A stretch of DNA of 64,000 nucleotides from Vagococcus sp. (GCF_052102835.1 NZ_JBQEIL010000004.1:7003-71002), one strand, 5' to 3'; positions 3,801 to 52,800 are shown, numbered from the stretch's first letter. Numbers and translations are program-made. The notes: a model not told the origin generated them from the letters alone.

Positions 3801-4331
3801 TACCTTTATCAGAGAAGTACGCTAAAAACATTAGATAATGAGTTAGGTGCATTGATGGAAAAAATACCTCAGCATGATTTTGAGGTTAACATGATTTATA
3901 CAGGAACGTTAGATTTAGAAGTTCCACTCAGTCTAACGTTTAAACCGCAAAAACTATTAGCAACAAAGCAAACCAGGATTCCTTTAACAAGACTATCAAC
4001 GATAGAAATAATCAATACTCAGGGAGAAGGAAGCCAGTGGAAATTAGGTGTGACGTTGGCCAAAAAAATGAAATTAAAAAAAGGACTAAGTGGCGATCAA
4101 AAGTTACTAGGTCAAATTTATTATCAAGAAAATGCGTTAGGAGAACCTAAATTAATTAGCTCAGGGTCAGTGACTGACCTGAAAAAAGAAGAAAATCCAA
4201 CCATTATAAATGACTTACTATTATTTACAGAAGACCAGTCAAAAGGTCTTTATCTTGATACTTTTACAGGTAATTTGGCAGGTAAATATGAAGATGGCGA
4301 AATAGATTGGGAATTAGCGAATGTGAAATAA
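861..4331 (+). CDS. Large secreted WxL-domain cell-surface protein with C-type lectin-like domain and one InlB B-repeat-like module
   Basis: N-terminal signal-like segment; residues ~552-760 show TWLHAY...GYLATLTSFEE...WYWANGPE...EPND...WND; YTITYDLLGG...LSANWE repeat; C-terminus ends IDWELANVK (WxL signature); no LPxTG. Confidence 0.75.
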   Translation: MVNYAKYLMKSLLMTTIFLFLNGSVFFAAQEFKSILTLPGINKVESRGTVPLPVDNSYTPKFSQADSTATAQTDDQEVKLSIIEAEDNNDDSFKGKIAIFEKKEASKTNKSTGSVLYKNMGRYKGKNVNVRLKFSTNSKKLVLGLSNTNALGIYNGLYSDGGIFIDVSYEFLDDQLAPMTISGHWTYYALNILKDIKFSKNQFDKYYAMTSADYQYAMDDSDEKITLGKRDSTTHDNRDNSYLTVTFNNKSKLNYQIECLKPNNTFGVLYASNSICKIVNHEIFAGGKTIRGQYRNEHRQIYQLEPRVPHVDKNAYYKNYQILAPLAAPLEVEASKIKITDENEVDRTNLFDVSISGTNELSIKAKKEGETISNSEFYDHRYTIKIFGKTKDSEKKKDLKLPLQAVLTVDGTPYSSNKAETQFDATTENDLNVKVKRTGQILTFTDVQLEDSTILKRDYQMIEFKLPEKIEPEKLELPDKWFQLKKSDDDQDNIITLSMKGNNSAKQIKTFLEKNISFLDKNAKGVLNKQKIEVIMFSEVITSLQDEEGIRHYYQFVSVDKPAAVNDYTWLHAYNDAKKMNLRGLRGYLATLTSFEEHSFVYDNIAKYSGYFGGTRLLRGSTKQYINDPVSLSTDIGDYSYNDPASDKWYWANGPEAGKIFYDFRTYSDFKADSRPVNEKEIAYNGFRNKENKKLMLPTDDPNEIMENSAEPNDSGKREFVTQFAVSGKWWNDVPHNTMATSNILGYYVEFSEYGDQVETETDENEIQAIATAKIPAPIRQSFKSATNNQELYSLKDYDDGIKIGDRLTLETKTKEHYLIEKPATREVTITDTTQEIIDKYQPKKYTITYDLLGGTSEKELTQTFTIEDKQVTLLSSDGIIKKGHELIKWEAKEVGKDYTLGQVVTSKELGGSLKLSANWEIKEVMMTVYYKLENKNGNLEDLKDLEQELEVKKFKHVEVQVDDPILTHLNPLINQKVKGYLYQRSTLKTLDNELGALMEKIPQHDFEVNMIYTGTLDLEVPLSLTFKPQKLLATKQTRIPLTRLSTIEIINTQGEGSQWKLGVTLAKKMKLKKGLSGDQKLLGQIYYQENALGEPKLISSGSVTDLKKEENPTIINDLLLFTEDQSKGLYLDTFTGNLAGKYEDGEIDWELANVK

Positions 4332-4354
4332 AAAAATGAAGATTTTAAAAAAAC

Positions 4355-4395
4355 TTGTTCAGTAATACACAAATAACGTTAAATGATGGTATAAT
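4355..4395 (+). promoter_or_regulatory. fucO promoter with possible Rex operator
   Basis: Extended -10 TGGTATAAT (4387-4395); TTGTTCAGTAATACACAA (4355-4372) matches the Rex consensus TTGTGAA-N4-TTCACAA with 3 mismatches. Confidence 0.4.
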
Positions 4396-4437
4396 AATAG
4401 ATAAGCTATTCAAAAAATAACAAAAGGATGATGTATT

Positions 4438-5592
4438 GTGTCAGTTAACCGTATGATTTTAAATGAAACGTCTTATTTTGGAAAAGGTGCCATTCAAGAA
4501 ATTGTACCAGAAATTAAAAAAAGAGGATTTAAAAAAGTATTGCTTGTAACCGATAAGCAATTGGCGACATCAGATGTTGTAGGTTCGATTAAAGAATTAT
4601 TAACGACAGCGACGATTAATTTTGAAGTTTATAGTGGAATTGTACCGAATCCATCAATTGAAGATGTTCAAAATGGAGTAGAGTTTGCTAAGAAAATGCA
4701 AGCAGATTGTATTTTAGCCGTTGGAGGTGGGTCACCAATTGATACTGCTAAAGCAATTGGGATCATTGTTACTAATCCCGAATTTGCAGACGTACGAAGT
4801 TTAGAGGGTGTTGCAGATACTAAGAAACCATGTTTACCAATCTTAGCAGTTCCAACAACAGCCGGAACAGCAGCAGAAGTAACGATTAATTATGTGATTA
4901 CAGATAAAGAAAAAAACAGAAAATTTGTTTGTGCCGACCCACATGATATTCCCGTTGTTTCTTTTGTCGATAGTGATTTAATGATGGGAATGCCTAAAGC
5001 ATTGTGTGCAGCTACTGGTATGGATGCACTGACTCATGCGGTTGAGGGATTGATTACTCAAGGCGCTTGGGAAATGACGGATATGCTGCATTTGAAAGCA
5101 ATTGAAATTATCACGCGTTCTTTAAAAGACTCAGTAGAAGGCAATCAAACAGCTAGAGAAGAAATGGCATTAGGCCAATATATCGCAGGCATGGGTTTTT
5201 CAAATGTTGGTTTAGGACTTGTTCACGGGATGGCACATCCATTGAGTGCTTGGTATGATATCCCCCACGGTGTTGCGTGTGCCTCTTTATTACCAACGGT
5301 TCTAGACTTTAATAAAGATTTTACGGGTGAGAAATATCGTGAGATGGCAAAAGTGATGGGAATTGAAAATGCTGAGACCTTATCATTAAGCGACGTTCGT
5401 GAGAAGGTTGTTACGGCAATTGATACTTTGGGTCAAGCTGTAGGTATCCCAAGAACTATTTCTGAATTAGGTGTGAAACAAGAAGATTTAGAAGAAATTG
5501 CTAAGGATGCAATTAATGATGTTTGTTCACCAGGAAATCCACGAGAAGCAAGTTTAGAACAAGTCATTGCACTATATGAAAGTTTAATGTAA
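4438..5592 (+). CDS. fucO: Lactaldehyde reductase / iron-containing alcohol dehydrogenase
   Basis: NRMILNETSYFG N-terminus, AVGGGSPID, PTTAGTAAEVT, GMDALTHAVE, GLVHGMAHPL and HGVA metal-binding motifs. Confidence 0.85.
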   Translation: MSVNRMILNETSYFGKGAIQEIVPEIKKRGFKKVLLVTDKQLATSDVVGSIKELLTTATINFEVYSGIVPNPSIEDVQNGVEFAKKMQADCILAVGGGSPIDTAKAIGIIVTNPEFADVRSLEGVADTKKPCLPILAVPTTAGTAAEVTINYVITDKEKNRKFVCADPHDIPVVSFVDSDLMMGMPKALCAATGMDALTHAVEGLITQGAWEMTDMLHLKAIEIITRSLKDSVEGNQTAREEMALGQYIAGMGFSNVGLGLVHGMAHPLSAWYDIPHGVACASLLPTVLDFNKDFTGEKYREMAKVMGIENAETLSLSDVREKVVTAIDTLGQAVGIPRTISELGVKQEDLEEIAKDAINDVCSPGNPREASLEQVIALYESLM

Positions 5593-5597
5593 TAAAA

Positions 5598-5645
5598 TAA
5601 ACTTATCAACGAACAGTTTATAATCTGTCGTTGATAAGTTTTTTT
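5598..5645. terminator. Bidirectional terminator between convergent fucO and ndk
   Basis: AAACTTATCAACG...CGTTGATAAGTTT followed by T run. Confidence 0.8.
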
Positions 5646-5655
5646 ATTTTAATAT

Positions 5656-6057
5656 TTAACCAAAGAAACGCTTAATTTCAATTTCTGCAGCAGTGGTTGA
5701 ATCAGAAGCATGAATAATATTCGCACCTGATTCAAAAGCATATTTAGCTCGAATAGTTCCAGGTAGAGCTTCTAAAGGATTAGTCGCTCCCACCATTTGA
5801 CGGATAGCAGCAATTCCAGAAGGGCCTTCTAAAATCAAACAAACAACAGGACCTGATGTCATGTAATCAATGACATCTTGGAAGAATGATTTTCCCTCTA
5901 AATGAGCATAATGTTCTTTAACAATGTTCTTTTCTAATAACTCCATTTTCATTTCTTTGATCGCAAATCCTCTTTGTTCAAAACTTTGAATAATTTCACC
6001 AATGATTTGTTTTTTGACACCATCAGGTTTGATGATAACAAGTGATTGTTCTAACAA
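5656..6057 (-). CDS. ndk: Nucleoside-diphosphate kinase
   Basis: IIKPDG, YMTSGPV, GATNP...PGTIR, NIIHASD motifs; TTG start with AGGAGG RBS. Confidence 0.95.
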   Translation of the reverse strand: MLEQSLVIIKPDGVKKQIIGEIIQSFEQRGFAIKEMKMELLEKNIVKEHYAHLEGKSFFQDVIDYMTSGPVVCLILEGPSGIAAIRQMVGATNPLEALPGTIRAKYAFESGANIIHASDSTTAAEIEIKRFFG

Positions 6058-6257
6058 TTAAATTCCTCCTAAAAAGTGATAACGCTTTCATTATACTGAA
6101 AGTTCTGAAAAAAGCAACCCTGTTTTTAACTGTTGATTTTATCGTTATAACACTAAGAAAATAAATGAATTGTAAAAAGGTGTTAATTATTTATCTTTTA
6201 AAGAATAAAGAAACATGTTATAATAAAGTATGTATATATAAAGGAGGAGTTTTTAGT

Positions 6258-6893
6258 ATGAAACGATTTTTAAGTTTTCTATTAATGGTAGGTTTAATCA
6301 TGCTTTTTCCAGTGATTACACATGCTGAAGGAGCAATCACTGCTGACGAACAACGTATTTTAGATGCGTTAAATCAAGGGGTTACAGCAAATGGTCAAAC
6401 ATTTTACTTTTCGTCAACTGATATTCAACAAGCAGAAAACGATTTAAAAACATATGATTATGAAGCATCAACAGTTAATCAAATTGTTGGCAATATAAAC
6501 TCTGCTCGTCAATTAGTTATTGACAATTCAGCAGGAATGACAGCATCAAGCTTAACTGATTTATTAAAACAATTACCTAGAGATGTTCAAAAGCAAGTAG
6601 GGTATTATGTAGCCGCTTCGGCTAAAGCATTAGATGTTAAAGTGGATCAAAATGGTTCAGTTGTGACTAATAATTACTATACTAATGGCGAAACTGAAAA
6701 AGGTTCAAAAGGTGGAGCAGCAAGTGGAGACGCTGGTCGTAAAGTTTTTGTACCAACGAATGCTAAAAATCCAGTTGTTAAAACAACAGGTGGTAATTAT
6801 GTGATGCCCTTTGCTGTTTTAGGTTCATTAGCAATTGCAACTTTTGGATTAGCGATTGCATCAAGTAACAAATGGAGTACCATCAATGCGTAA
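6258..6893 (+). CDS. Secreted protein, probable sortase substrate (C-terminal VVKTTG plus hydrophobic segment)
   Basis: Start moved to ATG 6258 behind AAGGAGG; signal peptide ending HA-EG; C-terminal NPVVKTTGG followed by a hydrophobic stretch; overlaps the sortase gene. Confidence 0.7.
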   Translation: MKRFLSFLLMVGLIMLFPVITHAEGAITADEQRILDALNQGVTANGQTFYFSSTDIQQAENDLKTYDYEASTVNQIVGNINSARQLVIDNSAGMTASSLTDLLKQLPRDVQKQVGYYVAASAKALDVKVDQNGSVVTNNYYTNGETEKGSKGGAASGDAGRKVFVPTNAKNPVVKTTGGNYVMPFAVLGSLAIATFGLAIASSNKWSTINA

Positions 6894-43744: not shown

Positions 43745-45397
43745 TTAATCATTTATCTGACTAAGATTAACTTGATAAAGTCGAATAGCTAAAAACATGT
43801 TCATCAAATGATCACTTTTGTTTAGATTAATACTTAATAATTTCTCTATTTTTTTAAATCGAGCTCGTAAAGTATTTTTATGAATAAAAAGACATTCGCT
43901 AGTATTAGTATGCGAAAAATTATTTTCGATATATGTTTCAAGAGTGTTTAAAAGTTCGCTTTTATATTGTTTATCGTGATTTATTATAGGAATAATATAT
44001 TGATTTAAAATTTGTTCAATGAATAATTCGTTAATATTACCAGCTTCATTAGTGAATAACTTTAAAATTCCTAAATCATTGTAATTTTGGAATTTTTCGT
44101 TAGATCTTCTTTTTTCAAGATAATGCAAAGAATGTTCGGCTTCTTTCCAAGAAGAACTTAAGTGATAGTAAGGAGAAGAGCCCCCAATTCCAACATAGAA
44201 AGAGTCATGTTGGAAAAAGTTAGTTAAGAATTGAACAAGAGAATTAATAAAAATATTAATATTTTTCTGTGAATCTCCAACAAGTAAGACCCAGTATTCT
44301 TGTCTTGAAAAAATCAAGATATTTTGATTTGTAAAATACGTTTTATAAAACTCATTGTAAAATTCGGAAAAACTAGTTGCTTTATGGATAAGATCATATG
44401 TTGTATTCCATTTATAATTTTTGACAAGAATAACTTGATAACTTAGTTCTAATCGAGTCCCTAGTATTAAACTATAATGATTTCGATTTTTATTAGAAGC
44501 TTTTTTAAGATTAAGCAACTCTTCAAAAGCTAAGTCTCGATAAACTAAATTTGTTTTTAGGACCTCTTGATAAAAGGTCTTTTTTAATTGATAAATAGAT
44601 TCTATGGTTTCTAATTTCGCTAATGTTTCTGGTGTGAGTATGTTAATTTCAATAGGAATTTTGATTAAAAGATAAAAAACATCATTTTTATTATCTTTGT
44701 TTTTTATAAAAATGATTTGTGAATTAGTATCTATTAATTTGTTTTTATAGCGATAACCTTGAATAATACGATTATTCATATTGTAACCAATCATTTCTTT
44801 GTGTATTAAATCTTTTGTAGTAATATTCTCAATCACTTTTTTCCATTTGTAGTCAAATGAAGCATCTAACAAGTTGAAACGACTGTCTGTAATTGCAATA
44901 GACAGATTTGTTACGTTGTAAATAGATGAGCATAAATCATTTAAGCCGTGATTATCACGAAGGTAATTTAGAATAGTTTTATGAAATTTTTCGGTATCTT
45001 TAATTATATTTAATTGTTTTTGAAATTGTAGCTCTTGTACAGTTGTAGTTACTTCGCTCCATGCATAATCATCGTCAATTAAGATAATAGGGATATTGAA
45101 ATGTAGCGCTGCATCTATCTCGCTCTGAGAGATAAATTGTTTGAATTTTTTTTTAGTGATAATACCAGAAATATTTCTTTGAGAGAGTTGTTTAATAAAA
45201 TTGACATCAAAGTTATATTCCATAAAACGTCCAATGATGATGAGTTCATTTTCTTTTACCCAATTTACAATATCTGGAATATCCATGATTGTGACTGTTT
45301 CAATAGTATTAGTAAAACTTTTTTTTGTACATATTAAATCTGATGTGTTGAATAGTTCTTTTTTTAACATTTCTTTAACGCTTATCCTATTTACCAT
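43745..45397 (-). CDS. PucR/CdaR family transcriptional regulator
   Basis: N-terminal purine-catabolism-regulator domain (VTIMDIPD...WVKENEL), C-terminal LFIHKNTLRAR HTH; start moved to ATG 45397 behind GGAGG. Confidence 0.9.
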   Translation of the reverse strand: MVNRISVKEMLKKELFNTSDLICTKKSFTNTIETVTIMDIPDIVNWVKENELIIIGRFMEYNFDVNFIKQLSQRNISGIITKKKFKQFISQSEIDAALHFNIPIILIDDDYAWSEVTTTVQELQFQKQLNIIKDTEKFHKTILNYLRDNHGLNDLCSSIYNVTNLSIAITDSRFNLLDASFDYKWKKVIENITTKDLIHKEMIGYNMNNRIIQGYRYKNKLIDTNSQIIFIKNKDNKNDVFYLLIKIPIEINILTPETLAKLETIESIYQLKKTFYQEVLKTNLVYRDLAFEELLNLKKASNKNRNHYSLILGTRLELSYQVILVKNYKWNTTYDLIHKATSFSEFYNEFYKTYFTNQNILIFSRQEYWVLLVGDSQKNINIFINSLVQFLTNFFQHDSFYVGIGGSSPYYHLSSSWKEAEHSLHYLEKRRSNEKFQNYNDLGILKLFTNEAGNINELFIEQILNQYIIPIINHDKQYKSELLNTLETYIENNFSHTNTSECLFIHKNTLRARFKKIEKLLSINLNKSDHLMNMFLAIRLYQVNLSQIND

Positions 45398-45417
45398 CTT
45401 ATACCTCCATTGTTCTA

Positions 45418-45447
45418 ACACACAAAGAAAGCGCTTTCTTTGTGTGT
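45418..45447. promoter_or_regulatory. Perfect 30-bp palindrome with cre-like core
   Basis: ACACACAAAGAAAGC|GCTTTCTTTGTGTGT between the divergent pucR-like and transcarbamylase genes. Confidence 0.7.
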
Positions 45448-45518
45448 CTTTATACAATATATTCTACTCTATTTTTCAATTATTATAAAGGCATCAAGTT
45501 AAAGGAGAGAAACATATT

Positions 45519-46457
45519 ATGAGAAATCGTTTTAAAGGAAAAAATTATCTAGCATTTAAGGACATGACAAAAGAAGAAATTGAGTTTATTACAGACTTAT
45601 CACTGGATTTTAAAAAGAAATGGACTGTTGGTGAACCACATGAATATTTAAAAGGTCAGGTATGGGCAGCTCTATTCGAAAAAAATAGTACTCGTACTAG
45701 AAATGCATTTGAAAGAGCAGCGGCAGATTTAGGTGTTAAAGTTGTTTATTTAAGACCAGATGAAATGCAGATGTCTCGTGGCGAACCTCTTAAAGATACC
45801 GCACGTATTTTAGATCGTTATTTTGATGGATTATTCATTCGTACATTTGGTCATGAAATTGTTGAAGAGTGTGCTGAGTGGATGCAAAACCCAATTATTA
45901 ATGGTCTGACTGCGTTAGAGCATCCAACACAAGGTATCGCTGACTTAATGACAATTAAAGAAAAATTTGGAAAATATGAAGGTTTAAAAATGTGTTATGC
46001 GGGTAATCTTTATAACGTTGCCTATACGACAATGATTTTCTGTGCAACTTTAGGTATTGATCTTTACTTAGCTTGTCCAGCTGAATTGAAACCAGATCCT
46101 GAAATCATGGAAGAAACAATGAAACGAGCAAGACTTTCAGGTGCGAAGATTGTCTTTACAGAAGATTTTAATGAAGCACTTAAAGATGCAGATATCGTTT
46201 ATGGTATGTCTCAATACAGTATGGGACAACCAGAAGAAGAAATTGAACATCTTAAAAAAATATTTGCACCTTATCAAATTACAATGGATGCAATGAAAAA
46301 AGCTAAAGAAAATGCCATTTTCATGCATTGCTTACCAGCTCATCGTGGTGAAGAAGTTACAGATGAAGTAATGGAATGTGATCAATCTGTTATTTTTGAT
46401 GAGGGTGAAAACCGTATGCATTCAATTAAAGCAATTTTAGCTGCAGTAGCTGACTAG
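45519..46457 (+). CDS. OTCase-fold carbamoyltransferase with an atypical amine-substrate site
   Basis: STRTR, HPTQ, HCLP and SMG present; the usual GDxxNN reads GNLYN and TDVWxSMG reads GMSQYSMG. Confidence 0.85.
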   Translation: MRNRFKGKNYLAFKDMTKEEIEFITDLSLDFKKKWTVGEPHEYLKGQVWAALFEKNSTRTRNAFERAAADLGVKVVYLRPDEMQMSRGEPLKDTARILDRYFDGLFIRTFGHEIVEECAEWMQNPIINGLTALEHPTQGIADLMTIKEKFGKYEGLKMCYAGNLYNVAYTTMIFCATLGIDLYLACPAELKPDPEIMEETMKRARLSGAKIVFTEDFNEALKDADIVYGMSQYSMGQPEEEIEHLKKIFAPYQITMDAMKKAKENAIFMHCLPAHRGEEVTDEVMECDQSVIFDEGENRMHSIKAILAAVAD

Positions 46458-46468
46458 GAGGAAAGTAA

Positions 46469-47413
46469 ATGTCAAAACTAGTAATTGCTTTAGGAGGCAA
46501 TGCTTTAGGAAAAACTGTATCGGAGCAAAAACAAGCAACAAATCTTGTTGCTCCGATTCTTGTTGATTTGATTGAACAAGGACATGAAATAATAATAACA
46601 CATGGAAATGGTCCACAAGTAGGCTTAATTAATCATGCATTTACAGATTTTATTGAAGAAACAGGAATAATTGATGAGATGCCATTTTCAGAATGTAACG
46701 CTATGAGTGAAGGTTACATAGGATATCATATTCAAAACTCAATAAAAAATGAATTAGAAAAGAGAAAGTTGTCAAAAACTGTGTGTACTTGTGTAACTCA
46801 AATTTTAGTAGATAAAGATGACCCAGCATTTTCTAAACCAACAAAACCAATCGGAGTTTTTTATGATAAAAAACGAGCAATGGAATTAAAAGAAACAAAA
46901 GGGTACCAAATGAAAGAGGATTCAGGACGTGGATATCGCCGAGTTGTTGCATCACCAATACCTATTGATATTTTAGAGAAAGAAGCAATATTAGCTTTAT
47001 TCTCTGCAGGTCAAATAGTTATTGCTTGCGGTGGCGGTGGTATTCCAGTTGTGAAAGAAGAAAATACTTACTACGGTGTTGATGCTGTTATAGATAAGGA
47101 TTATTCTAGTGAGAAATTAGCAGAATTAGTTTCTGCAGATATTTTTATTATCTTAACAGCAGTGGATCAAGTTTTTATCAATTATGGAACAGAAGAAGAA
47201 AAAGGGTTGGATAAAATAACGAAAAATGAAGTAGAAAGATTAATAGCTGAAGAACAGTTTGGTGAAGGTTCGATGTTACCTAAGATTCAAGCAAGTCTTG
47301 ATTTTGTAACACATGCTTCAAATAAAAAAGCGATTATCACTTCTATAGAACAAATAAACAATGCATTATCTGGCCGTGGAGGTACCGTGATTATTGGAAA
47401 TGAGGTAGGCTAA
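46469..47413 (+). CDS. arcC: Carbamate kinase
   Basis: ALGGNAL, THGNGPQVG, KPIG, GYRRVVASP, GGGGIPV, AVIDKD, GSMLPK. Confidence 0.95.
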   Translation: MSKLVIALGGNALGKTVSEQKQATNLVAPILVDLIEQGHEIIITHGNGPQVGLINHAFTDFIEETGIIDEMPFSECNAMSEGYIGYHIQNSIKNELEKRKLSKTVCTCVTQILVDKDDPAFSKPTKPIGVFYDKKRAMELKETKGYQMKEDSGRGYRRVVASPIPIDILEKEAILALFSAGQIVIACGGGGIPVVKEENTYYGVDAVIDKDYSSEKLAELVSADIFIILTAVDQVFINYGTEEEKGLDKITKNEVERLIAEEQFGEGSMLPKIQASLDFVTHASNKKAIITSIEQINNALSGRGGTVIIGNEVG

Positions 47414-48921
47414 TGGAAAATGTAAAAGAAAAAAAGAAGTTTAAATCCCCCAATACGTATGTCATCATATTTATTGTTCTCTTAATTGTTGCTATTTTAA
47501 CCTGGTTTATACCAGGTGGTAAATATGAGTTGGATGCTTCCGGACGAGCAATTGCTAATACATATACAAGAATTGCTTCAAATAGACAAGGTTTATGGGA
47601 TGTTATTATGGCACCAATCATTGGAATGGTTGGTAATGAACAAGTTTCGGGAGCGATAACTATTTCATTAAACGTCATGTTGTTTGGTAGCTTTTTAGAA
47701 ATGATGGATACAACTGGTGCTATCAATATAGCTTTAAAGGGTGTTGCACGTAAATATCAAAAAAATTATTATGTTTTGATAACAGTATTAACATTTATTA
47801 TGGGTATTTTCGGAACGGTTCAAGGAGCGTATGAGGAAGGATTTGTTTACTTACTGATGTTCTTACCGATTATACTGGCACTTGGTTTAGATACTATTGT
47901 AGCTTTGATGATTGTTATTTTTGGTACTCAGGCTGGTTGTGCAGCCTCAATTGTCAATCCGTTTTCAACAGGAATTGCATCAGGGATTGCAGGTATTAGT
48001 CCCGGAGATGGAATTGTTTATCGTACGATTATCTTTGTTGTATTAATGTCATTGTGCTCTTTTATGATTTGTCGTTACGCAAATCATATTCAAAAAAATC
48101 CTGAAAAATCTGTTCAATACTTCAGACATGAAAAAGATTTATTAGAATTTGCTGGTGGTACTGACGATGTGGAGAGTCTAAATAAAAAACAAAGAAAAGT
48201 ATTTAGCGTTTTTATTCTAACTTTTGTTATTATGATCACTTCACTTATTCCGTGGACATCATTAAATCCTAATTGGACATTCTTTGAGAACGTTACAAAA
48301 TGGCTGATGAATGCTCCAATCATCGGTACGATTTTGGGTAAAGATTTAGTTCCATTTGGTGAATGGTACTTTAATGAAATTAACGGTTTACTAATTATTA
48401 TGACAATTGTTGTAGGAATGATTATGGGATATACCATTGATAAAACCATAAATATCCTAATTAAAGGAGCGGCAGCGTTGGTCTCAACTGCATTTATAGT
48501 TCCTTTAGCTAGAGGGATCCAAGTAATTATGACTGATGGAAATATCACAGCGACCGTTTTAAATGCAACTGAAAAAACATTAGGTAGTTTACACCCGGTT
48601 GTATTTATTATTGTTTGTTTCTTAGTTTATATCTTATTAGCAATGTTTATCCCAAGTTCAACAGGCTTAGCAGCAGCAACAATGTCGATTATGGCACCAT
48701 TAGCTGTTTTTGCTGGTGTATCTGAATCTGCAATGGTTGTTGTTTATAACCTAGCGTTAGGCTTTGTTAAAATTTTTGCACCAACATCAATTATTGTAAT
48801 GACTTGTACACAGGCGGTGCACGTCGATTATGGATCATGGCTTAAAGCAACAGGAAAATATATCGCAGTATTCTTTGTAGCTTGTTGCTTAATTTTATTA
48901 GTTAATGTATTAGTATTCTAA
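47413..48921 (+). CDS. YfcC-family transporter (probable substrate/product antiporter)
   Basis: PNTYVIIF, IPGGKY, NPFSTGIA, PSSTG, APTS motifs; many TM segments. Confidence 0.88.
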   Translation: MENVKEKKKFKSPNTYVIIFIVLLIVAILTWFIPGGKYELDASGRAIANTYTRIASNRQGLWDVIMAPIIGMVGNEQVSGAITISLNVMLFGSFLEMMDTTGAINIALKGVARKYQKNYYVLITVLTFIMGIFGTVQGAYEEGFVYLLMFLPIILALGLDTIVALMIVIFGTQAGCAASIVNPFSTGIASGIAGISPGDGIVYRTIIFVVLMSLCSFMICRYANHIQKNPEKSVQYFRHEKDLLEFAGGTDDVESLNKKQRKVFSVFILTFVIMITSLIPWTSLNPNWTFFENVTKWLMNAPIIGTILGKDLVPFGEWYFNEINGLLIIMTIVVGMIMGYTIDKTINILIKGAAALVSTAFIVPLARGIQVIMTDGNITATVLNATEKTLGSLHPVVFIIVCFLVYILLAMFIPSSTGLAAATMSIMAPLAVFAGVSESAMVVVYNLALGFVKIFAPTSIIVMTCTQAVHVDYGSWLKATGKYIAVFFVACCLILLVNVLVF

Positions 48922-48948
48922 ATTAAATAAGAAATGGAGCGTAATGAA

Positions 48949-49803
48949 ATGACTGAAAAATTTTATGTGAAAAATGGAACAAATGTATTGAAAAAAGTGC
49001 TGGTGTGCTCACCACGATTTTATAAATTTAATGGAATTAATGATATTACTAAGAGTTGGATGGAAAAAGGAGAAACAGAGAAAAATGAATTAATGGTTAA
49101 AGAATGGGACACATTAATTCAAGCTTATAAAGATAATGGAGTGGAAGTAGTAGAAGTGGCTTCATATGAAGAGTTGGAAGTTCAAACATTTGCACGTGAT
49201 TTTGGTGCAATGGTTAAAGAGGGGGCAATTATTGGTAAGTTTCGACACCCAGCACGTCAAAAAGAAACAGAAGTTTATGAACAAAAATTAAAAGAAATGG
49301 GAGTTCCAATCATAGCACGTTGTAATGCAGGGTGTTTTGAAGGTGGCGATTTCTGGATGATTGATGATCATACAATTGCATTTGGATTAGTCGATCGTAC
49401 AGATAAAGCAGGCGTTGATAATTTACGAGAACAATTAGAAAAATTCGGTTATACCGTAGTAGGTGTTGAATCACGTCCTACTAACTTGCACTTAGATATG
49501 ATTTTTAATATTGTAGCACCTAAGGTTTGTATTGCTGCAACAGATGAATTACCATATCAATTTTTAGAGATGCTAAAACGTCGTAACTTCAAAATTATTC
49601 ATGTTCCAAGTGAATTAGTATTTAAACATGGTTGTAACGTTCAAGCATTAGGAAATGGTAAAGTTTTAGGTATTGAGAACAATAAATCGGTTAACGAAGC
49701 AATGGAAGCTGAAGGGTTAGAAGTAATCAAATTACCATTGGAACAAATTTTAAAAGCAGGCGGTGGACCACACTGTATGAAATTCCCTGTTTCAAGAGAT
49801 TAG
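48949..49803 (+). CDS. Short pentein (amidinotransferase/DDAH-like guanidino hydrolase)
   Basis: FARD, FEGGD, LHLD, GGPHCM catalytic motifs; ~284 aa, much shorter than canonical ArcA (~410 aa); probable start ATG 48949. Confidence 0.85.
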   Translation: MTEKFYVKNGTNVLKKVLVCSPRFYKFNGINDITKSWMEKGETEKNELMVKEWDTLIQAYKDNGVEVVEVASYEELEVQTFARDFGAMVKEGAIIGKFRHPARQKETEVYEQKLKEMGVPIIARCNAGCFEGGDFWMIDDHTIAFGLVDRTDKAGVDNLREQLEKFGYTVVGVESRPTNLHLDMIFNIVAPKVCIAATDELPYQFLEMLKRRNFKIIHVPSELVFKHGCNVQALGNGKVLGIENNKSVNEAMEAEGLEVIKLPLEQILKAGGGPHCMKFPVSRD

Positions 49804-49818
49804 AAAAGAGGCAAATAA

Positions 49819-50805
49819 ATGAAAATAGTAATTACTGATTATCCTGATTCAATGATGCCTACTCATGATTATGAAAGAGAAATCTTAATAGATGGTTTGG
49901 GTGAATGTGAAATTGTCGTTTATGAGTATGCGGATGAAAAGCGTGAAGAGTTTTTTGAGGTAATTAAAGATGCTGATGCTATTTTGACTGCTTTTACTAA
50001 GATTGATGCAGAAGCAATGGATCATGCCAAAAATTTGAAATTAGTTTCTCTAAATGCAACTGGGTATGATAACGTCGATCTAGTTGAAGCAAACCGAAGA
50101 GGAGTTGGTGTTTGTCCAGTAGGGGAATATTCAACTATAGATGTAGCTGAATTTACAATTACATTAATGTTGACATTGATAAAAAATTTAAAAGCCTATA
50201 TTCAAGATATCGATATCAATCATAAATGGCGTTATGACGTAAAGCCACCAAATGCACGCGTCGAGGATATGACACTAGGTGTTTTTGGATTTGGAAAAAT
50301 AGGTAAAGCTGTAGCAACTAGAGGCAAGGCTTTAGGTATGACTGTCATTACTTGCGATCCTTATGTTGACCAGAAACTAGGTGATGAGTACGGTGTTATA
50401 TTTGTAAGTAAGGAAGAACTTTTAGCAACATCTGATGTAATTACAAATAATATGAATCTAAATGAGAGTAATCAATCATTCTTTAATTTATCAGTTTTTA
50501 AAGAGATGAAAAAAGCACCATTTTTTATTAATATGGGGCGTGGTGCGAGTGTAAATGAATCGGACTTAAAAATAGCTCTAGATAATGGTTTAATAAAAGG
50601 AGCTGGTCTTGATTTACTTGCTGATGAGACACCAGATTTAGAAAACCATCCCTTAGTTGGATTAGATACTGTGATCATAACACCTCATGCAGCTTTTTAT
50701 TCATCAACTTCAATAAAAGAATTGCAGAGATTATCTACTGAGAATATAGTATATTACTTAACGAATCAAAAAGATAAAGTTTTTAAACTTGTTAGCGATA
50801 ATTAA
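49819..50805 (+). CDS. D-isomer-specific 2-hydroxyacid dehydrogenase (CtBP-like)
   Basis: ATGYDNVD, GFGKIG, INMGRG, LDLLADE, TPHAAFYS. Confidence 0.9.
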   Translation: MKIVITDYPDSMMPTHDYEREILIDGLGECEIVVYEYADEKREEFFEVIKDADAILTAFTKIDAEAMDHAKNLKLVSLNATGYDNVDLVEANRRGVGVCPVGEYSTIDVAEFTITLMLTLIKNLKAYIQDIDINHKWRYDVKPPNARVEDMTLGVFGFGKIGKAVATRGKALGMTVITCDPYVDQKLGDEYGVIFVSKEELLATSDVITNNMNLNESNQSFFNLSVFKEMKKAPFFINMGRGASVNESDLKIALDNGLIKGAGLDLLADETPDLENHPLVGLDTVIITPHAAFYSSTSIKELQRLSTENIVYYLTNQKDKVFKLVSDN

Positions 50806-50843
50806 AAAAAGACCGCTCTTCTGTGTGGGAGGAGCGGTCTTTT
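50806..50843. terminator. Bidirectional terminator
   Basis: AAAAGACCGCTC...GAGCGGTCTTTT. Confidence 0.85.
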
Positions 50844-50849
50844 GTGTTT

Positions 50850-51878
50850 TTATAAATAAGCGTTTAATGGATAAGTCGTGAATTCTGTTGTTTCCAGTTT
50901 TTCACAGGTAACAAATCCGTTAGGAGCTTTAAGTAATGATGGAATACGATTGACAACAGTTGCACAAGTATGAGCGACTGTATCTGGTTTTTCTAATGAG
51001 AAAATCATGTCAGGTTCTCCAGTGATTTTCCAATCACACATATCACCATCTGTTGGGCGGTAAACTTTACCAATACACTCTACTTCGAGTTCAGGACCTT
51101 GGTAGGTTTGAATACTGGTGACAGCAGACATTCCCGTAGCATCGCCAGCAGGAATAGTCCGACCAAGCGTTTCAGAGTAGATATCTTCATCTAAAGTTAT
51201 AGCCACATTTTTTTGTGAAATCGACTTGATTGTCCAATTCATTTTAGAACAAATTGCTTCAGCAGCATTCCACATATAAGAAGGTAAGCTTTCTGCTTGT
51301 GCGATGTCACTTTCAAACTTAGCCATTGGATAACCAGCACCGTGAGCTTCAGCTAAGGCTAAGCCATAGTCTTCAACATTATAACTTACTGCACCTTTTA
51401 CTTTAGTTACACCATTCATCCCGGCCATCATAAGTGTTGGCATATTGATCCAATAAATATCTTGCATTCCGCTACCTGTAATCGTGACATTATGTTTTTT
51501 TGCTAGTTTATCTAAATAATTAGTTTCAGCAGGTGATGTATTCCATGGATAGATGGCTTCTTCACAAGTTGTGATAATATTCACATTATTTTTGATGCAA
51601 AGTTCAAAGAAAGGCATCATTTCAGGCATGTAACTAAAGATAGTAACAACAGCAACATCAGCATCTGTTTCATTTAAAACTTTTTCAGCATCATCAGAGA
51701 TAAGTACGCCCATTTTCCGGCCGAGATTAGCGAAATCACCAATATCCGTACCTACTAACGCTGGATTATTATCGATTGCTCCGACAATTTCAGCACCATG
51801 ATCAACTAAATATTTAATCATTACCTCAGCCATTTTTCCACAACCAAATTGAATTACTTTAACTTTGTCTAACTTCAT
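50850..51878 (-). CDS. 2,4-diaminopentanoate dehydrogenase family / native amine dehydrogenase-like oxidoreductase
   Basis: FGCGKM Rossmann motif, CEEAIYPW, TGSGMQDIYW, YNVEDYG, TCATVVNRIP; resembles recalled CfusAmDH/MsmeAmDH sequences. Confidence 0.75.
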   Translation of the reverse strand: MKLDKVKVIQFGCGKMAEVMIKYLVDHGAEIVGAIDNNPALVGTDIGDFANLGRKMGVLISDDAEKVLNETDADVAVVTIFSYMPEMMPFFELCIKNNVNIITTCEEAIYPWNTSPAETNYLDKLAKKHNVTITGSGMQDIYWINMPTLMMAGMNGVTKVKGAVSYNVEDYGLALAEAHGAGYPMAKFESDIAQAESLPSYMWNAAEAICSKMNWTIKSISQKNVAITLDEDIYSETLGRTIPAGDATGMSAVTSIQTYQGPELEVECIGKVYRPTDGDMCDWKITGEPDMIFSLEKPDTVAHTCATVVNRIPSLLKAPNGFVTCEKLETTEFTTYPLNAYL

Positions 51879-51921
51879 AAAAATAACCTCCCAAATTATT
51901 TGATAATCATTTCACAATCAT

Positions 51922-51952
51922 AGTATAATCTCTATAGTAACTATAGAGTCAA
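51922..51952 (-). promoter_or_regulatory. MerR-type promoter of the dehydrogenase gene
   Basis: Minus strand TTGACT, 19-nt spacer, TATACT; dyad CTCTATAGT-A-ACTATAGAG (51930-51948) across the spacer. Confidence 0.85.
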
Positions 51953-51963
51953 GGAGAGTTATC

Positions 51964-52800
51964 ATGAATGAAAAACTAAAAATTGGTGATTTTGCTAAAA
52001 TGAATGATGTATCTGTTCAAACACTGCGTTATTATGAAAAAATCGGTTTATTAAAGCCTTATTTTATTGATTTAGAAACAAATTATCGATATTATCATCT
52101 GCTCCAATCACCAATTATTGATAGTATTCAGTATTTAAAGGAATGTAATTTATCACTGACTGAAATTAAAAGCTTTCTGTCTGAAGAAAAATCATCGCTT
52201 GTTTTACATCAAAAAATGGAAAAAGAACTTCAAACTTTGATTGACGAGCAAGAAAAAATAAGTCAACGAATGCAACGAATTAAAAGTTTTATGGTGAATA
52301 ACCAAACGTACCAGCAAAACTTAAAGAAGACCGCTTTTGAAATAATCAACTTGCCAGAGCGTTATCTTTATCAGTTCGAAATCCCTAAAAATATTTATGA
52401 CTTGAATCCGAATGACTATGAACATTATTTACGTGATTTTAAAGCTCATCTTAATCAAGAAAAGTTACATGTGATTCACTTTAGTCAAGTGGGATCAGTT
52501 ATTCCTCAAGCTCTATTTGAACGAAATGAAATGATTTCAAAACAAATGTTTGTTTTTTGCTCAAGTAAATTGAAACAACTGAATCAAGTTAAAACCTTAC
52601 CAGCTCATTTATACGCAGTAGATTACTGTCATTCATTTGGAGATGAGATGGGAAAAATCAAAGAATTAAAGAAAAAAATTAAAGCCAATGGTTATCATGT
52701 AGCTGGAGATTATTTGTGTGAGGTACTCAGAGAATTACCACAAATTGATCGTTTAGAACGTAATATGTTTATTCGTTTACAAATCCCAATTGAATCTTAG
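51964..52800 (+). CDS. MerR family regulator with BmrR/GyrI-like ligand-binding domain
   Basis: KIGDFAK..VSVQTLRYYEKIGLLKP...NYRYY; 278 aa with C-terminal effector domain. Confidence 0.92.
   Translation: MNEKLKIGDFAKMNDVSVQTLRYYEKIGLLKPYFIDLETNYRYYHLLQSPIIDSIQYLKECNLSLTEIKSFLSEEKSSLVLHQKMEKELQTLIDEQEKISQRMQRIKSFMVNNQTYQQNLKKTAFEIINLPERYLYQFEIPKNIYDLNPNDYEHYLRDFKAHLNQEKLHVIHFSQVGSVIPQALFERNEMISKQMFVFCSSKLKQLNQVKTLPAHLYAVDYCHSFGDEMGKIKELKKKIKANGYHVAGDYLCEVLRELPQIDRLERNMFIRLQIPIES

Follow-up and report, generated by a model that had tools for sequence, protein, structure and literature searches.

In the ADI pathway (ArcA, ArcB, ArcC, and ArcD or ArcE), a pentein deiminase is followed by phosphorolysis by an OTC-family enzyme and ATP formation by carbamate kinase, and a dedicated exchanger completes the set. 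In the agmatine deiminase pathway (AguA, AguB, AguC, and AguD), the same three-step, ATP-yielding logic serves a guanidino substrate other than arginine; its putrescine transcarbamylase AguB was long misannotated as OTC (PMC514541). DDAHs are single-domain proteins of the pentein fold with 250–290 residues, whereas ArgZ/AgrE carries a fused ornithine cyclodeaminase-like domain and yields ornithine directly, with no free ureido intermediate. To our knowledge, the only bacterial route via 2-oxoarginine is the ATA pathway of Pseudomonas (AruH, AruI, KauB, and GbuA), in which the guanidino group is removed as urea by a metallo-ureohydrolase and no ATP is gained.

The locus studied here lies in a 64,000-nucleotide stretch of a Vagococcus sp. 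genome (GCF_052102835.1 NZ_JBQEIL010000004.1:7003–71002; "the window"). It comprises a gene for a PucR-type regulator that diverges from a tightly packed operon for a transcarbamylase, a carbamate kinase, a YfcC-type carrier, a pentein, and a 2-hydroxyacid dehydrogenase (HADH) (Table 1). An earlier note on this DNA had claimed this set of six genes; all of them are present where it placed them, and profile searches confirmed their families. Two gene starts were revised. The regulator most likely begins at the ATG at 45397, preceded by a ribosome-binding site (GGAGGT), rather than at the TTG at 45457, and the start of the pentein was set to 48949, giving the length of 284 residues common to all homologues. 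The operon is as compact as had been proposed, with 11 nt between transcarbamylase and carbamate kinase, a 1-nt overlap of carbamate kinase and carrier, 27 nt between carrier and the probable start of the pentein, and 15 nt between pentein and HADH. It also ends in a single terminator, a strong intrinsic hairpin after the HADH stop codon. We found no paper that describes this cluster.

Table 1. Features of the locus, in coordinates of the window
Feature	Coordinates	Strand	Evidence and remarks
PucR-family transcriptional regulator, about 550 aa	43745..45397	-	PF07905 59 bits, PF13556 (HTH_30) 62 bits
Perfect 30-bp palindrome, halves ACACACAAAGAAAGC and GCTTTCTTTGTGTGT	45418..45447	.	Divergent promoter region; candidate operator
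OTC-like catabolic transcarbamylase, type A, 312 aa	45519..46457	+	OTCace_N and OTCace; altered second-substrate site
Carbamate kinase, 314 aa	46469..47413	+	TIGR00746 367.7 bits (cut-off 358.25), as for ArcC
YfcC/DcuC-family membrane carrier, 502 aa; presumed precursor/product exchanger	47413..48921	+	PF03606 283 bits
Pentein, 284 aa; presumed guanidino-acid deiminase	48949..49803	+	DDAH_eukar and ADI Pfam matches; pentein fold in AF2 model
D-isomer-specific 2-hydroxyacid dehydrogenase (HADH), 328 aa	49819..50805	+	PF02826 155 bits, PF00389 83 bits, both over cut-off
Intrinsic terminator	50807..50843	+	16-bp stem, 7 G-C pairs, T-rich tail; common to convergent gene

The gene arrangement is a real module and not a chance association. 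Among 67 species-level loci with enough flanking sequence, 66 carry transcarbamylase, YfcC-type carrier, and HADH on the strand of the pentein and within 6 kb. These loci are found in Lactobacillales, Clostridia, Paenibacillus, Klebsiella, Actinomycetaceae, and Coriobacteriia (Bacillota, Actinomycetota, and Pseudomonadota), and their penteins are 65–94% identical. The carrier adjoins the pentein in all 67 loci. The HADH is missing from a single cluster, that of Isobaculum melis, whose genome encodes an HADH with 69% identity at another site. Carbamate kinase is part of the cluster in only 18 loci; the other genomes possess one to three copies elsewhere. The gene-neighborhood comparison thus bears out co-conservation of pentein, transcarbamylase, carrier, and HADH, and the smaller share of clusters with carbamate kinase qualifies the earlier note. 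PucR-type regulators, long or short, lie beside the module in most related loci.

The pentein possesses the hallmarks of its superfamily: a five-fold β-β-α-β propeller, the catalytic Cys/His/Glu, and two guanidino-clamping aspartates. Its AF2 model (pLDDT 96.5) was matched by Foldseek to NnhA, AGAT, ADI, DDAH, and ArgZ with a probability of 1.00. The closest solved structure is the N-terminal domain of ArgZ (TM 0.84–0.87, rmsd 2.1–2.5 Å, about 275 aligned columns, 19–21% identity). The best Pfam match is DDAH_eukar, and databases call the protein a DDAH family member. The models for specific functions score below their cut-offs: ArcA (TIGR01078/PRK01388) 76 bits versus 489, the NCBIfam DDAH models NF045658, NF045659, and NF045660 80, 74, and 46 bits versus 300, 340, and 450, and arginine dihydrolase (NF052232) 52.5 bits versus 450. 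In ADI (about 410 residues), modules 1 and 2 are separated by a helical domain of roughly 85 residues, which the small pentein does not have; the alignment to ADI skips about 87 residues here, between query positions 76 and 125 (PMC3474736).

Within this compact fold, the contacts of ADI are largely preserved. Cys276, His181, Glu131, Asp84, Asp183, Arg103, and Arg150 are invariant in 83 relatives, and so are all catalytic and guanidino-binding residues of ADI. The pentein features the ADI-like motif HLD instead of the HLK of DDAH, which makes room for methyl groups (PMC11659421). Together with the invariant ADI residues, this suggests a deiminase of an unsubstituted guanidine. Also retained are both carboxylate-binding arginines (ADI Arg180 and Arg232) and the Phe packed against the aliphatic chain, as mapped from the ADI structural contacts (PMC3474736), indicating an arginine-shaped substrate. 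The exception is the position of Asn155 (M. arginini ADI numbering), equivalent to Asp73 of human DDAH1, which provides the sole side chain on the α-amino group of the substrate (PMC3474736, PMC10958460). This residue is Val78 in the window's pentein, and the Asn of ArcA is absent from the whole family (80 of the 83 relatives have Val, the other 3 Ile). A further position, −6, differs between sister clades (Tyr, Trp, Asn, or Ala), which marks it as a specificity position; on its own it does not identify the substrate. The window's copy also carries T278K beside the catalytic Cys, an exchange that could impair the enzyme.

The transcarbamylase shows a comparable pattern. Its carbamoyl-phosphate site is intact and conserved, with FEKNSTRTR (STRTR), HPTQ, and HCLPAHRG (HCLP). 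Compared with P. furiosus OTC, however, GDGNNV is changed to GNLYNV and TDVWASMG to GMSQYSMG. Asp231 of the DxxxSMG motif binds the α-amino group of ornithine in OTC (PMC4581275); the window enzyme reads MSQYSMG at this site, and the Asp is replaced in all 76 cluster transcarbamylases, where type A enzymes have Met or Asn and type B enzymes have Asn. Both types have a neutralized Asp in the GD(G)NN motif as well. The origin of type A lies in the short OTC subfamily (best models TIGR00658 and PRK00779), that of type B in the long subfamily PRK04284, so that the change is convergent. Type B differs from catabolic OTC in little beyond Asp-to-Asn and Ser-to-Ala. The window enzyme still scores above OTC cut-offs (TIGR00658, 347 versus 281 bits; NF001986, 335 versus 306 bits), and its gene is therefore annotated automatically as OTC; with the putrescine carbamoyltransferase model TIGR04384 it reaches 269 bits, below the cut-off of 500.

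According to the earlier note, every component that determines specificity differs from the known pathways. This is too strong, as the carbamate kinase is canonical and the carrier goes by the NCBIfam name of the YfcC-type basic amino acid antiporters, putatively the family of the arginine/ornithine/citrulline exchanger ArcE (TC 2.A.118). The carrier itself scores 189 bits with the model of that name, NF008611 ("putative basic amino acid antiporter YfcC"), below the cut-off of 500. Transporters of the ArcE family accept arginine, citrulline, and ornithine (PMC5300872). The HADH, which is integral to the module and has no counterpart in the ADI pathway, belongs to the D-2-hydroxyacid dehydrogenase family by its conserved GRG and TPH catalytic motifs. 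It additionally displays a conserved clade-specific signature (CPVGEYCT.DV.E) and reached no cut-off of the equivalog models for PGDH, GhrA/B, LdhD, VanH, and PdxB. GhrA of E. coli, from the same family, efficiently reduces 2-ketoarginine (bioRxiv 10.1101/2022.04.02.486822).

Regulation also sets the locus apart from the ADI pathway, as the regulator is of the PucR type and not ArgR, ArcR, or Crp-Fnr. It combines the PucR N-terminal domain with a C-terminal HTH_30 domain and reached no cut-off of the NCBIfam equivalog models. The palindrome in the divergent promoter region is a possible operator, although the regions upstream of the transcarbamylase at related loci do not share it.

Related penteins provide further clues to the substrate. 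In one locus, that of Vagococcus elongatus, the cluster contains an extra DDAH with the sequence FPSSVFIED, in which Ser occupies the position of the α-amino binder. The Asp is kept in P. aeruginosa DDAH (FPDSVFVED) and in the stand-alone DDAH of the window's host (FPDACFVED). The closest sister clade of the pentein (61% identical) has Ala at the position equivalent to Asn155/Asp73 and is accompanied, on one contig, by a homologue of TPP-dependent 2-oxoacid enzymes, an aldehyde dehydrogenase, a carbamoylase, and an organic-acid MFS carrier. The TPP enzyme and the aldehyde dehydrogenase recall AruI and KauB of the ATA pathway, although the former is not an AruI orthologue (189 bits versus a cut-off of 500), and the window cluster itself has no transaminase or decarboxylase. 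Sister pentein clades without a transcarbamylase possess a separate carbamoylase instead, implying that the pentein there releases a ureido product.

Residues were mapped by sequence alignment to the structures of ADI, DDAH, and OTC. By this mapping, the α-amino-binding side chain is lost in three enzymes, namely the pentein, the transcarbamylase in both lineages, and the embedded DDAH, suggesting that the α-amino group of the substrate is not recognized. The carboxylate-binding residues are retained, so that the substrate probably keeps its carboxylate, unlike agmatine, which has none and whose deiminase AguA belongs to another pentein family. The co-conserved HADH, the enzymes encoded beside the sister pentein clade, and the precedent of GhrA point to a 2-oxo or 2-hydroxy acid. 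We consider it moderately probable that the module encodes a third kind of ATP-yielding deiminase pathway, for a carboxylate-bearing, arginine-shaped guanidino acid without a protonated α-amino group, most likely 2-oxoarginine (5-guanidino-2-oxopentanoate) and/or (R)-argininic acid. This pair was the first candidate listed in the earlier note and appears to fit best, given the co-conserved HADH and the sister clade with its TPP 2-oxoacid-type enzyme and aldehyde dehydrogenase.

The same logic could serve another guanidino acid that lacks the α-amino group or has it blocked, such as 5-guanidinovalerate, 4-guanidinobutyrate, N-α-acetylarginine, or D-arginine, with the HADH in a side reaction (redox balancing or product metabolism). 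All of these are compatible with the lost α-amino binders, the HADH is separable from the module in Isobaculum, and the sister pentein clades clearly handle varied substrates. Nevertheless, we regard this as rather unlikely, since the HADH belongs to 66 of 67 clusters and is kept in the genome of the exception, while these candidates offer no 2-hydroxy or 2-oxo function; for the shorter acids, the retained OTC-type SMG/AMG loop and ADI-type Arg pair favor a C5 skeleton. A compact variant of the ordinary ADI pathway, with a mini-ADI acting on L-arginine, an OTC-like enzyme on L-citrulline, and a YfcC/ArcE-type carrier swapping arginine or citrulline for ornithine, seems improbable. It would agree with the curated OTC cut-off passed by the transcarbamylase, the canonical carbamate kinase, the known substrates of ArcE-family carriers (PMC5300872), and the lack of another ADI pathway in the host genome. 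It conflicts with the DxxxSMG Asp lost in 76 of 76 transcarbamylases from two independent lineages and with Val or Ile at the Asn155 equivalent in 83 of 83 penteins, and it leaves the conserved HADH without a role. Moreover, descriptions of the module carriers Enterococcus cecorum and E. phoeniculicola give them as negative for arginine dihydrolase, which we also count against an ordinary ADI pathway.

The DDAH_eukar match, the database name, and the extra DDAH in one cluster could suggest that the pentein is a DDAH converting ADMA or MMA to citrulline, with ATP formed downstream. We judge this very improbable in view of the three NCBIfam DDAH cut-offs that are not reached, the HLD motif in place of the methyl-accommodating HLK (PMC11659421), the transcarbamylase without its binder for the citrulline/ornithine α-amino group, and the separate canonical DDAH in the host genome. 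An allantoin/ureidoglycolate branch, with the HADH as ureidoglycolate dehydrogenase, the transcarbamylase as oxamate transcarbamylase, and carbamate kinase yielding ATP, is extremely improbable. We know of no other transcarbamylase/carbamate kinase route with a 2-hydroxyacid dehydrogenase step, purine catabolism is often controlled by PucR regulators, and the bulky Met/Tyr/Leu replacements in type A could shrink the transcarbamylase pocket. However, the pocket of type B is not shrunk, the invariant pentein would have no role despite keeping every arginine-type contact to guanidino group, chain, and carboxylate, and no allantoinase, allantoate, or ureidoglycine genes were found at any locus examined. 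Equally little credence can be given to a dihydrolase like ArgZ or AstB that releases the amine directly, with transcarbamylase and carbamate kinase serving another purpose. Although the ArgZ N-terminal domain is the best fold match of the model (TM 0.84–0.87, rmsd 2.1 Å), its identity is only 21%, the arginine dihydrolase model gives 52 bits versus 450, and the carbamoylase of the transcarbamylase-less sister clades implies a ureido product. The pentein of the module is always accompanied by a transcarbamylase, which a dihydrolase would make pointless despite its strict co-conservation. The OTC cut-off, the ArgZ fold match, and T278K in the window's pentein were counted against the 2-oxoarginine/argininic acid pathway.

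In the pathway that we favor, for 2-oxoarginine and/or (R)-argininic acid, the enzyme classes are assigned from sequence, and substrates and order of steps are proposed. The YfcC-type carrier would take up the guanidino acid from outside in exchange for the amine formed at the end of the route. The HADH would interconvert 2-oxo and 2-hydroxy forms, most likely by NADH-dependent reduction of 2-oxoarginine at entry and less likely by oxidation of the amino-hydroxy acid at exit. The pentein (Cys276/His181/Glu131) would hydrolyze the unsubstituted guanidino group, giving a ureido group and ammonia, and the OTC-like transcarbamylase would phosphorolyze the ureido acid to an ω-amino acid and carbamoyl phosphate, from which carbamate kinase would form ATP, CO2, and NH3 with ADP (substrate-level phosphorylation). 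The divergent PucR-type regulator would activate the operon when the substrate or an intermediate is present. In the host genome, we found no ArcA, no other OTC, and no argG or argH, and the carbamate kinase of the window is the only one, indicating that the module does not serve a classical arginine function there. The absence of classical ADI, OTC, and arginine biosynthesis, the co-conservation of the module, the lost α-amino binders, and the kept carboxylate binders support the proposal of the earlier note that deiminase, transcarbamylase, carbamate kinase, and exchanger may act together on a guanidino substrate other than arginine or agmatine.

The six genes that the earlier note had tentatively assigned to an ATP-yielding deiminase pathway for a guanidino compound other than arginine or agmatine are present at 43745–50805 of the window, and ORF listing and HMM scans place each of them in the family claimed. 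The plus-strand genes are compactly spaced (in gene order 11 nt, a 1-nt overlap, 12–27 nt, and 15 nt), and the single terminator predicted to close the operon was found directly after the D-2-hydroxyacid dehydrogenase (HADH) gene. The pentein gene starts at 48949 and not at the listed position, because this start gives a protein of 284 amino acids, the length of every homologue. A GGAGGT ribosome-binding site points to ATG 45397, rather than the listed TTG 45457, as the probable start of the PucR gene. The palindrome in the divergent promoter region was rejected as a conserved PucR operator, as related loci do not conserve it.

Coordinates of the operon and its associated sequence features in the window
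Feature	Position	Strand	Basis or remark
PucR-type regulator	43745–45457 (as listed)	minus	ORF listing and HMM scan
Perfect 30-bp palindrome	45418–45447		Divergent promoter region, ∼86 bp upstream of the transcarbamylase start
Aspartate/ornithine-type transcarbamylase	45519–46457	plus	ORF listing and HMM scan
Carbamate kinase	46469–47413	plus	ORF listing and HMM scan
DcuC/YfcC-family carrier	47413–48921	plus	ORF listing and HMM scan
Pentein	48934–49803 (as listed)	plus	ORF listing and HMM scan
D-isomer-specific 2-hydroxyacid dehydrogenase (HADH)	49819–50805	plus	ORF listing and HMM scan
Terminator	50807–50843		16-bp stem

The region abutting the operon (50850–52800) carries a 2,4-diaminopentanoate-dehydrogenase-like (Ord-like) gene and a divergent MerR regulator. 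The Ord-like protein comprises DapB_N and DAP_DH_C; its score of 142 bits is below the cut-off (400). Both genes were rejected as members of the module, as they were found in 0 of 83 related loci; a gene of the same family beside a distant pentein (locus L093) is only 28% identical to that of the window.

The pentein family spans >100 species at 65–94% identity. Eighty loci were fetched at species level, from Lactobacillales, Clostridia (Schaedlerella, Oscillospiraceae), Paenibacillus, Klebsiella indica, K. spallanzanii, Actinomycetaceae, and many Coriobacteriia (Collinsella, Eggerthella, Gordonibacter, Adlercreutzia), and 67 of them have enough flank for a neighborhood count. Genes were mapped with tblastn; plain ORF calling gave spurious antisense ORFs at high GC. 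Transcarbamylase, carrier, and HADH lie within 6 kb of the pentein gene and on the same strand in 66 of the 67 loci, which supports the gene set as a real unit. The sole exception is Isobaculum melis, where the HADH (69% identical) is a lone gene elsewhere in the genome. Carbamate kinase is found inside the cluster at only 18 of the 67 loci; in the four genomes tested whose cluster lacks it, one to three bona fide copies are encoded elsewhere. Most clusters are flanked by a PucR-type regulator of long or short form, and an additional carrier is common (a Gate-domain protein, a sodium:solute symporter, or a second YfcC). A search of the S. suis genome for a paralogue of ArcE (E ≤ 1e-10) matched solely the carrier copy of the cluster. 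The module is patchily distributed: within the window's genus, 3 of 20 genomes carry it, and within its family 7 of 36. In Enterococcus cecorum it is flanked by IS3-, IS66-, and IS4-type transposase genes (loci L001, 495–1915, and L002, 11693–15752). Together, these features point to a mobile accessory unit, consistent with horizontal transfer.

The pentein is a “mini-ADI” whose AlphaFold model, based on a 54-sequence alignment, assumes a single domain (pLDDT 96.5). Foldseek matched it to NnhA, amidinotransferases, arginine deiminase (ADI), DDAH, and ArgZ/AgrE, the nearest match by size and rmsd (2.1 Å) being the N-terminal domain of ArgZ. For ArcA, DDAH, and arginine dihydrolase alike, the protein scores below the curated HMM cut-off. 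In contrast to ADI, it lacks ∼87 residues at the site of the ADI helical domain (PMC3474736). Residues were mapped by HMMER alignment to M. arginini ADI with its published contacts (PMC3474736), a sequence-based and ligand-free comparison. The catalytic residues Cys276, His181, and Glu131 and the guanidino-clamping Asp84 and Asp183 are invariant in 83 relatives, as are Arg103 and Arg150, which correspond to the carboxylate-binding Arg180 and Arg232 of ADI, and a Phe that packs against the aliphatic chain. As in ADI, the catalytic His is followed by HLD, whereas DDAHs feature an HLK motif that gives space for methyl groups (PMC11659421).

The exception is the position of ADI Asn155, the equivalent of Asp73 in human DDAH1 and the sole side chain touching the substrate α-amino group (PMC10958460). 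At this position, six residues before the guanidino Asp, the relatives carry Val (80 of 83) or Ile (3 of 83). Sister clades feature Ala (the closest, 61% identical), Asn (a clade beside an amino-acid ABC transporter), and Tyr or Trp (others). Given this variety, the position behaves as a specificity determinant. The mini-ADI family as a whole seems to be a toolbox for varied guanidino compounds. The window's own pentein carries Lys at residue 278 (codon AAA, 49780–49782), two positions after Cys276 (C-M-K), where 81 of the 83 relatives and the otherwise identical protein of a sister strain (P0001) have Thr. This replacement may be neutral, may impair the enzyme, or may stem from a sequencing error.

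The transcarbamylase of the window retains the carbamoyl-phosphate motifs STRTR, HPTQ, and HCLP. In ornithine transcarbamylases (OTCs), Asp231 of the signature DxxxSMG holds the α-amino group of ornithine (PMC4581275). The window's enzyme has MSQYSMG in place of this signature and GNLYNV in place of GDGNNV. Among the clusters, two transcarbamylase lineages occur that are ∼40% identical to each other. Type A, the short OTC form (best models TIGR00658 and PRK00779), is found in Lactobacillales, Klebsiella, Paenibacillus, some Clostridia, and some Actinomycetaceae. Type B belongs to the long PRK04284 subfamily, including that form's insertion after HCLP, and is found in Coriobacteriia, other Actinomycetaceae, and some Clostridia; its motifs are Y(T/A)NVWAAM(G/H)E and G(Q/T)G(R/D)NNV. 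The same two Asp residues are neutralized in both lineages (76 of 76 sequences), and the remaining scaffold of the ornithine site is kept. This argues for an amine product that would be ornithine-shaped and devoid of a cationic α-amino group, and the convergence of types A and B is the strongest single argument. With the same Asp residues lost independently in two OTC lineages, transcarbamylase specificity can be studied here as a clean natural experiment. Both types score above the TIGR00658 cut-off and are therefore annotated as OTC.

The genome of the window (2.37 Mb, Vagococcus-like; nearest relative V. silagei) possesses no classical ADI, no second OTC-type gene (the other transcarbamylase is one weak ATCase-like match), and neither argG nor argH, and the carbamate kinase of the operon is its one copy. 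Therefore, the operon's transcarbamylase is not an anabolic enzyme and does not belong to a standard arc operon.

The HADH retains its catalytic motifs, features a conserved clade-specific loop (CPVGEYCT.DV.E), and matches no HMM of a characterized equivalog. We infer the identity of the substrate and the order of the steps from sequence and context. The contacts retained in pentein and transcarbamylase argue for a guanidino carboxylic acid of arginine length as the probable substrate, and the contacts lost argue that its C2 substituent would be neutral. Because HADH is obligatory in the module, this group is argued to be a hydroxyl or an oxo group. HADH probably acts at the entry or exit of the pathway and not between deiminase and transcarbamylase, as it is unlinked in Isobaculum. 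Entry, where HADH would reduce 2-oxoarginine, is favored because enzymes of this family generally work in the hydroxy-acid direction and fermenters profit from the re-oxidation of NADH. GhrA of E. coli, which belongs to this dehydrogenase family, is an efficient reductase of 2-ketoarginine (bioRxiv 10.1101/2022.04.02.486822). In Lactococcus lactis, ArcT is a proposed arginine:pyruvate transaminase (PMC5300872) and would as such yield 2-ketoarginine in lactic-acid-bacterial communities.

In the closest sister clade of the pentein (metagenome contig L094, 6001–12858), an HTH_30 regulator and an organic-acid MFS carrier adjoin the gene, together with a hydantoinase/carbamoylase-family amidase, an enzyme of the TPP-dependent acetolactate-synthase/2-oxoacid-decarboxylase superfamily, and an aldehyde dehydrogenase. 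The TPP-dependent enzyme is not an orthologue of AruI. Taken together, these genes would fit a guanidino 2-oxo acid as the substrate and look like a putative non-ATP-yielding route for a related compound of this type. More distant mini-ADI clades lie beside an ABC transporter and an M20 hydrolase (L084), an NCS1 permease and a cyclase (L085), an amino-acid ABC transporter, with Asn kept at the specificity position (L086), a GntR regulator and an unknown membrane protein (L092), or an SSF carrier, an Ord-like dehydrogenase, CoA-transferases, and HpaB (L093).

The operon of Vagococcus elongatus contains, between carbamate kinase and carrier, an inserted gene for a true DDAH homologue (L014, 4582–5364). 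The homologue shares 57% identity with the stand-alone DDAH encoded in the window's genome. At the α-amino Asp motif, it reads FPSSVFIED, as compared with FPDSVFVED in P. aeruginosa DDAH and FPDACFVED in the stand-alone paralogue, so that the cluster-embedded DDAH is also without the Asp that binds the α-amino group. This single case suggests that a methylated form of the same α-amino-less substrate may be used. In animals, the product formed from ADMA by AGXT2 is the corresponding 2-oxo acid, dimethylguanidino-valerate. AGXT2 provides an alternative route to DDAH in ADMA metabolism (PMC9174227). A separate DDAH cluster with a divergent GntR regulator is located elsewhere in the window's genome (L088, G000:C2:146500–157500, at 2555–6733). 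It comprises a canonical DDAH with the α-amino Asp kept, a PLP enzyme of the alanine-racemase fold, and an ArcD-like APC antiporter, and may be a module for methylarginine uptake and conversion.

The ADI and agmatine deiminase pathways follow the same logic as the module, which differs from them in its specificity determinants, its integral dehydrogenase, and its regulator. A plain arginine pathway is contradicted by the contacts lost in three enzymes and leaves HADH without explanation. Deimination of methylarginines has a low probability, as the pentein carries HLD and its DDAH scores stay below threshold. Other guanidino acids that lack the α-amino group are possible substrates, but HADH would then be without a role. 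The ureidoglycolate/oxalurate branch of allantoin fermentation is improbable; it would leave the pentein without a role, and allantoin genes are absent from the loci. If the pentein were a dihydrolase, the transcarbamylase would be pointless; sister clades without a transcarbamylase have a carbamoylase in its place.

A full-text literature search found no description of this cluster. Homologues of the pentein are publicly named “nitrate reductase,” “amidinotransferase,” “DDAH family,” or “arginine deiminase family,” and those of HADH “C-terminal binding protein,” “phosphoglycerate dehydrogenase,” or “4-phosphoerythronate dehydrogenase”; all of these names are probably wrong. In Actinobaculum massiliense, an “amidinotransferase” that may belong to the mini-ADI family and is encoded beside arcA, arcB, and arcC was >8-fold up in urinary catheter biofilm versus in vitro (PMC6314084). 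The systematic misannotation, of the transcarbamylase as OTC and of the pentein under mixed names, would be corrected by the assignment to a keto or hydroxy arginine analogue. We put forward tentatively, as a possibility somewhat short of even, the joint reading in full: a widespread and mobile third deiminase/transcarbamylase/carbamate-kinase pathway for such analogues (2-oxoarginine, argininate), in which two OTC lineages were convergently re-tooled by neutralizing the same two Asp residues and a remodeled DDAH in some species would add methylated analogues, e.g. the host metabolite dimethylguanidino-valerate.

To our knowledge, only two energy pathways of this type are established, those for arginine and agmatine; a third would add a new class of fermentable substrates and supply these bacteria with ammonia and ATP from a new source. 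The >100 species with the module include Collinsella, Eggerthellaceae, enterococci, streptococci, vaginal lactobacilli, and Klebsiella. If the joint reading is true, gut, urogenital, and food bacteria would gain ATP, and possibly re-oxidize NADH, from products of arginine transamination or oxidation that come from the host or from neighboring microbes. With 2-oxoarginine, argininate, or their methylated forms as the substrate, the module would link microbial energy metabolism to host guanidino metabolites.
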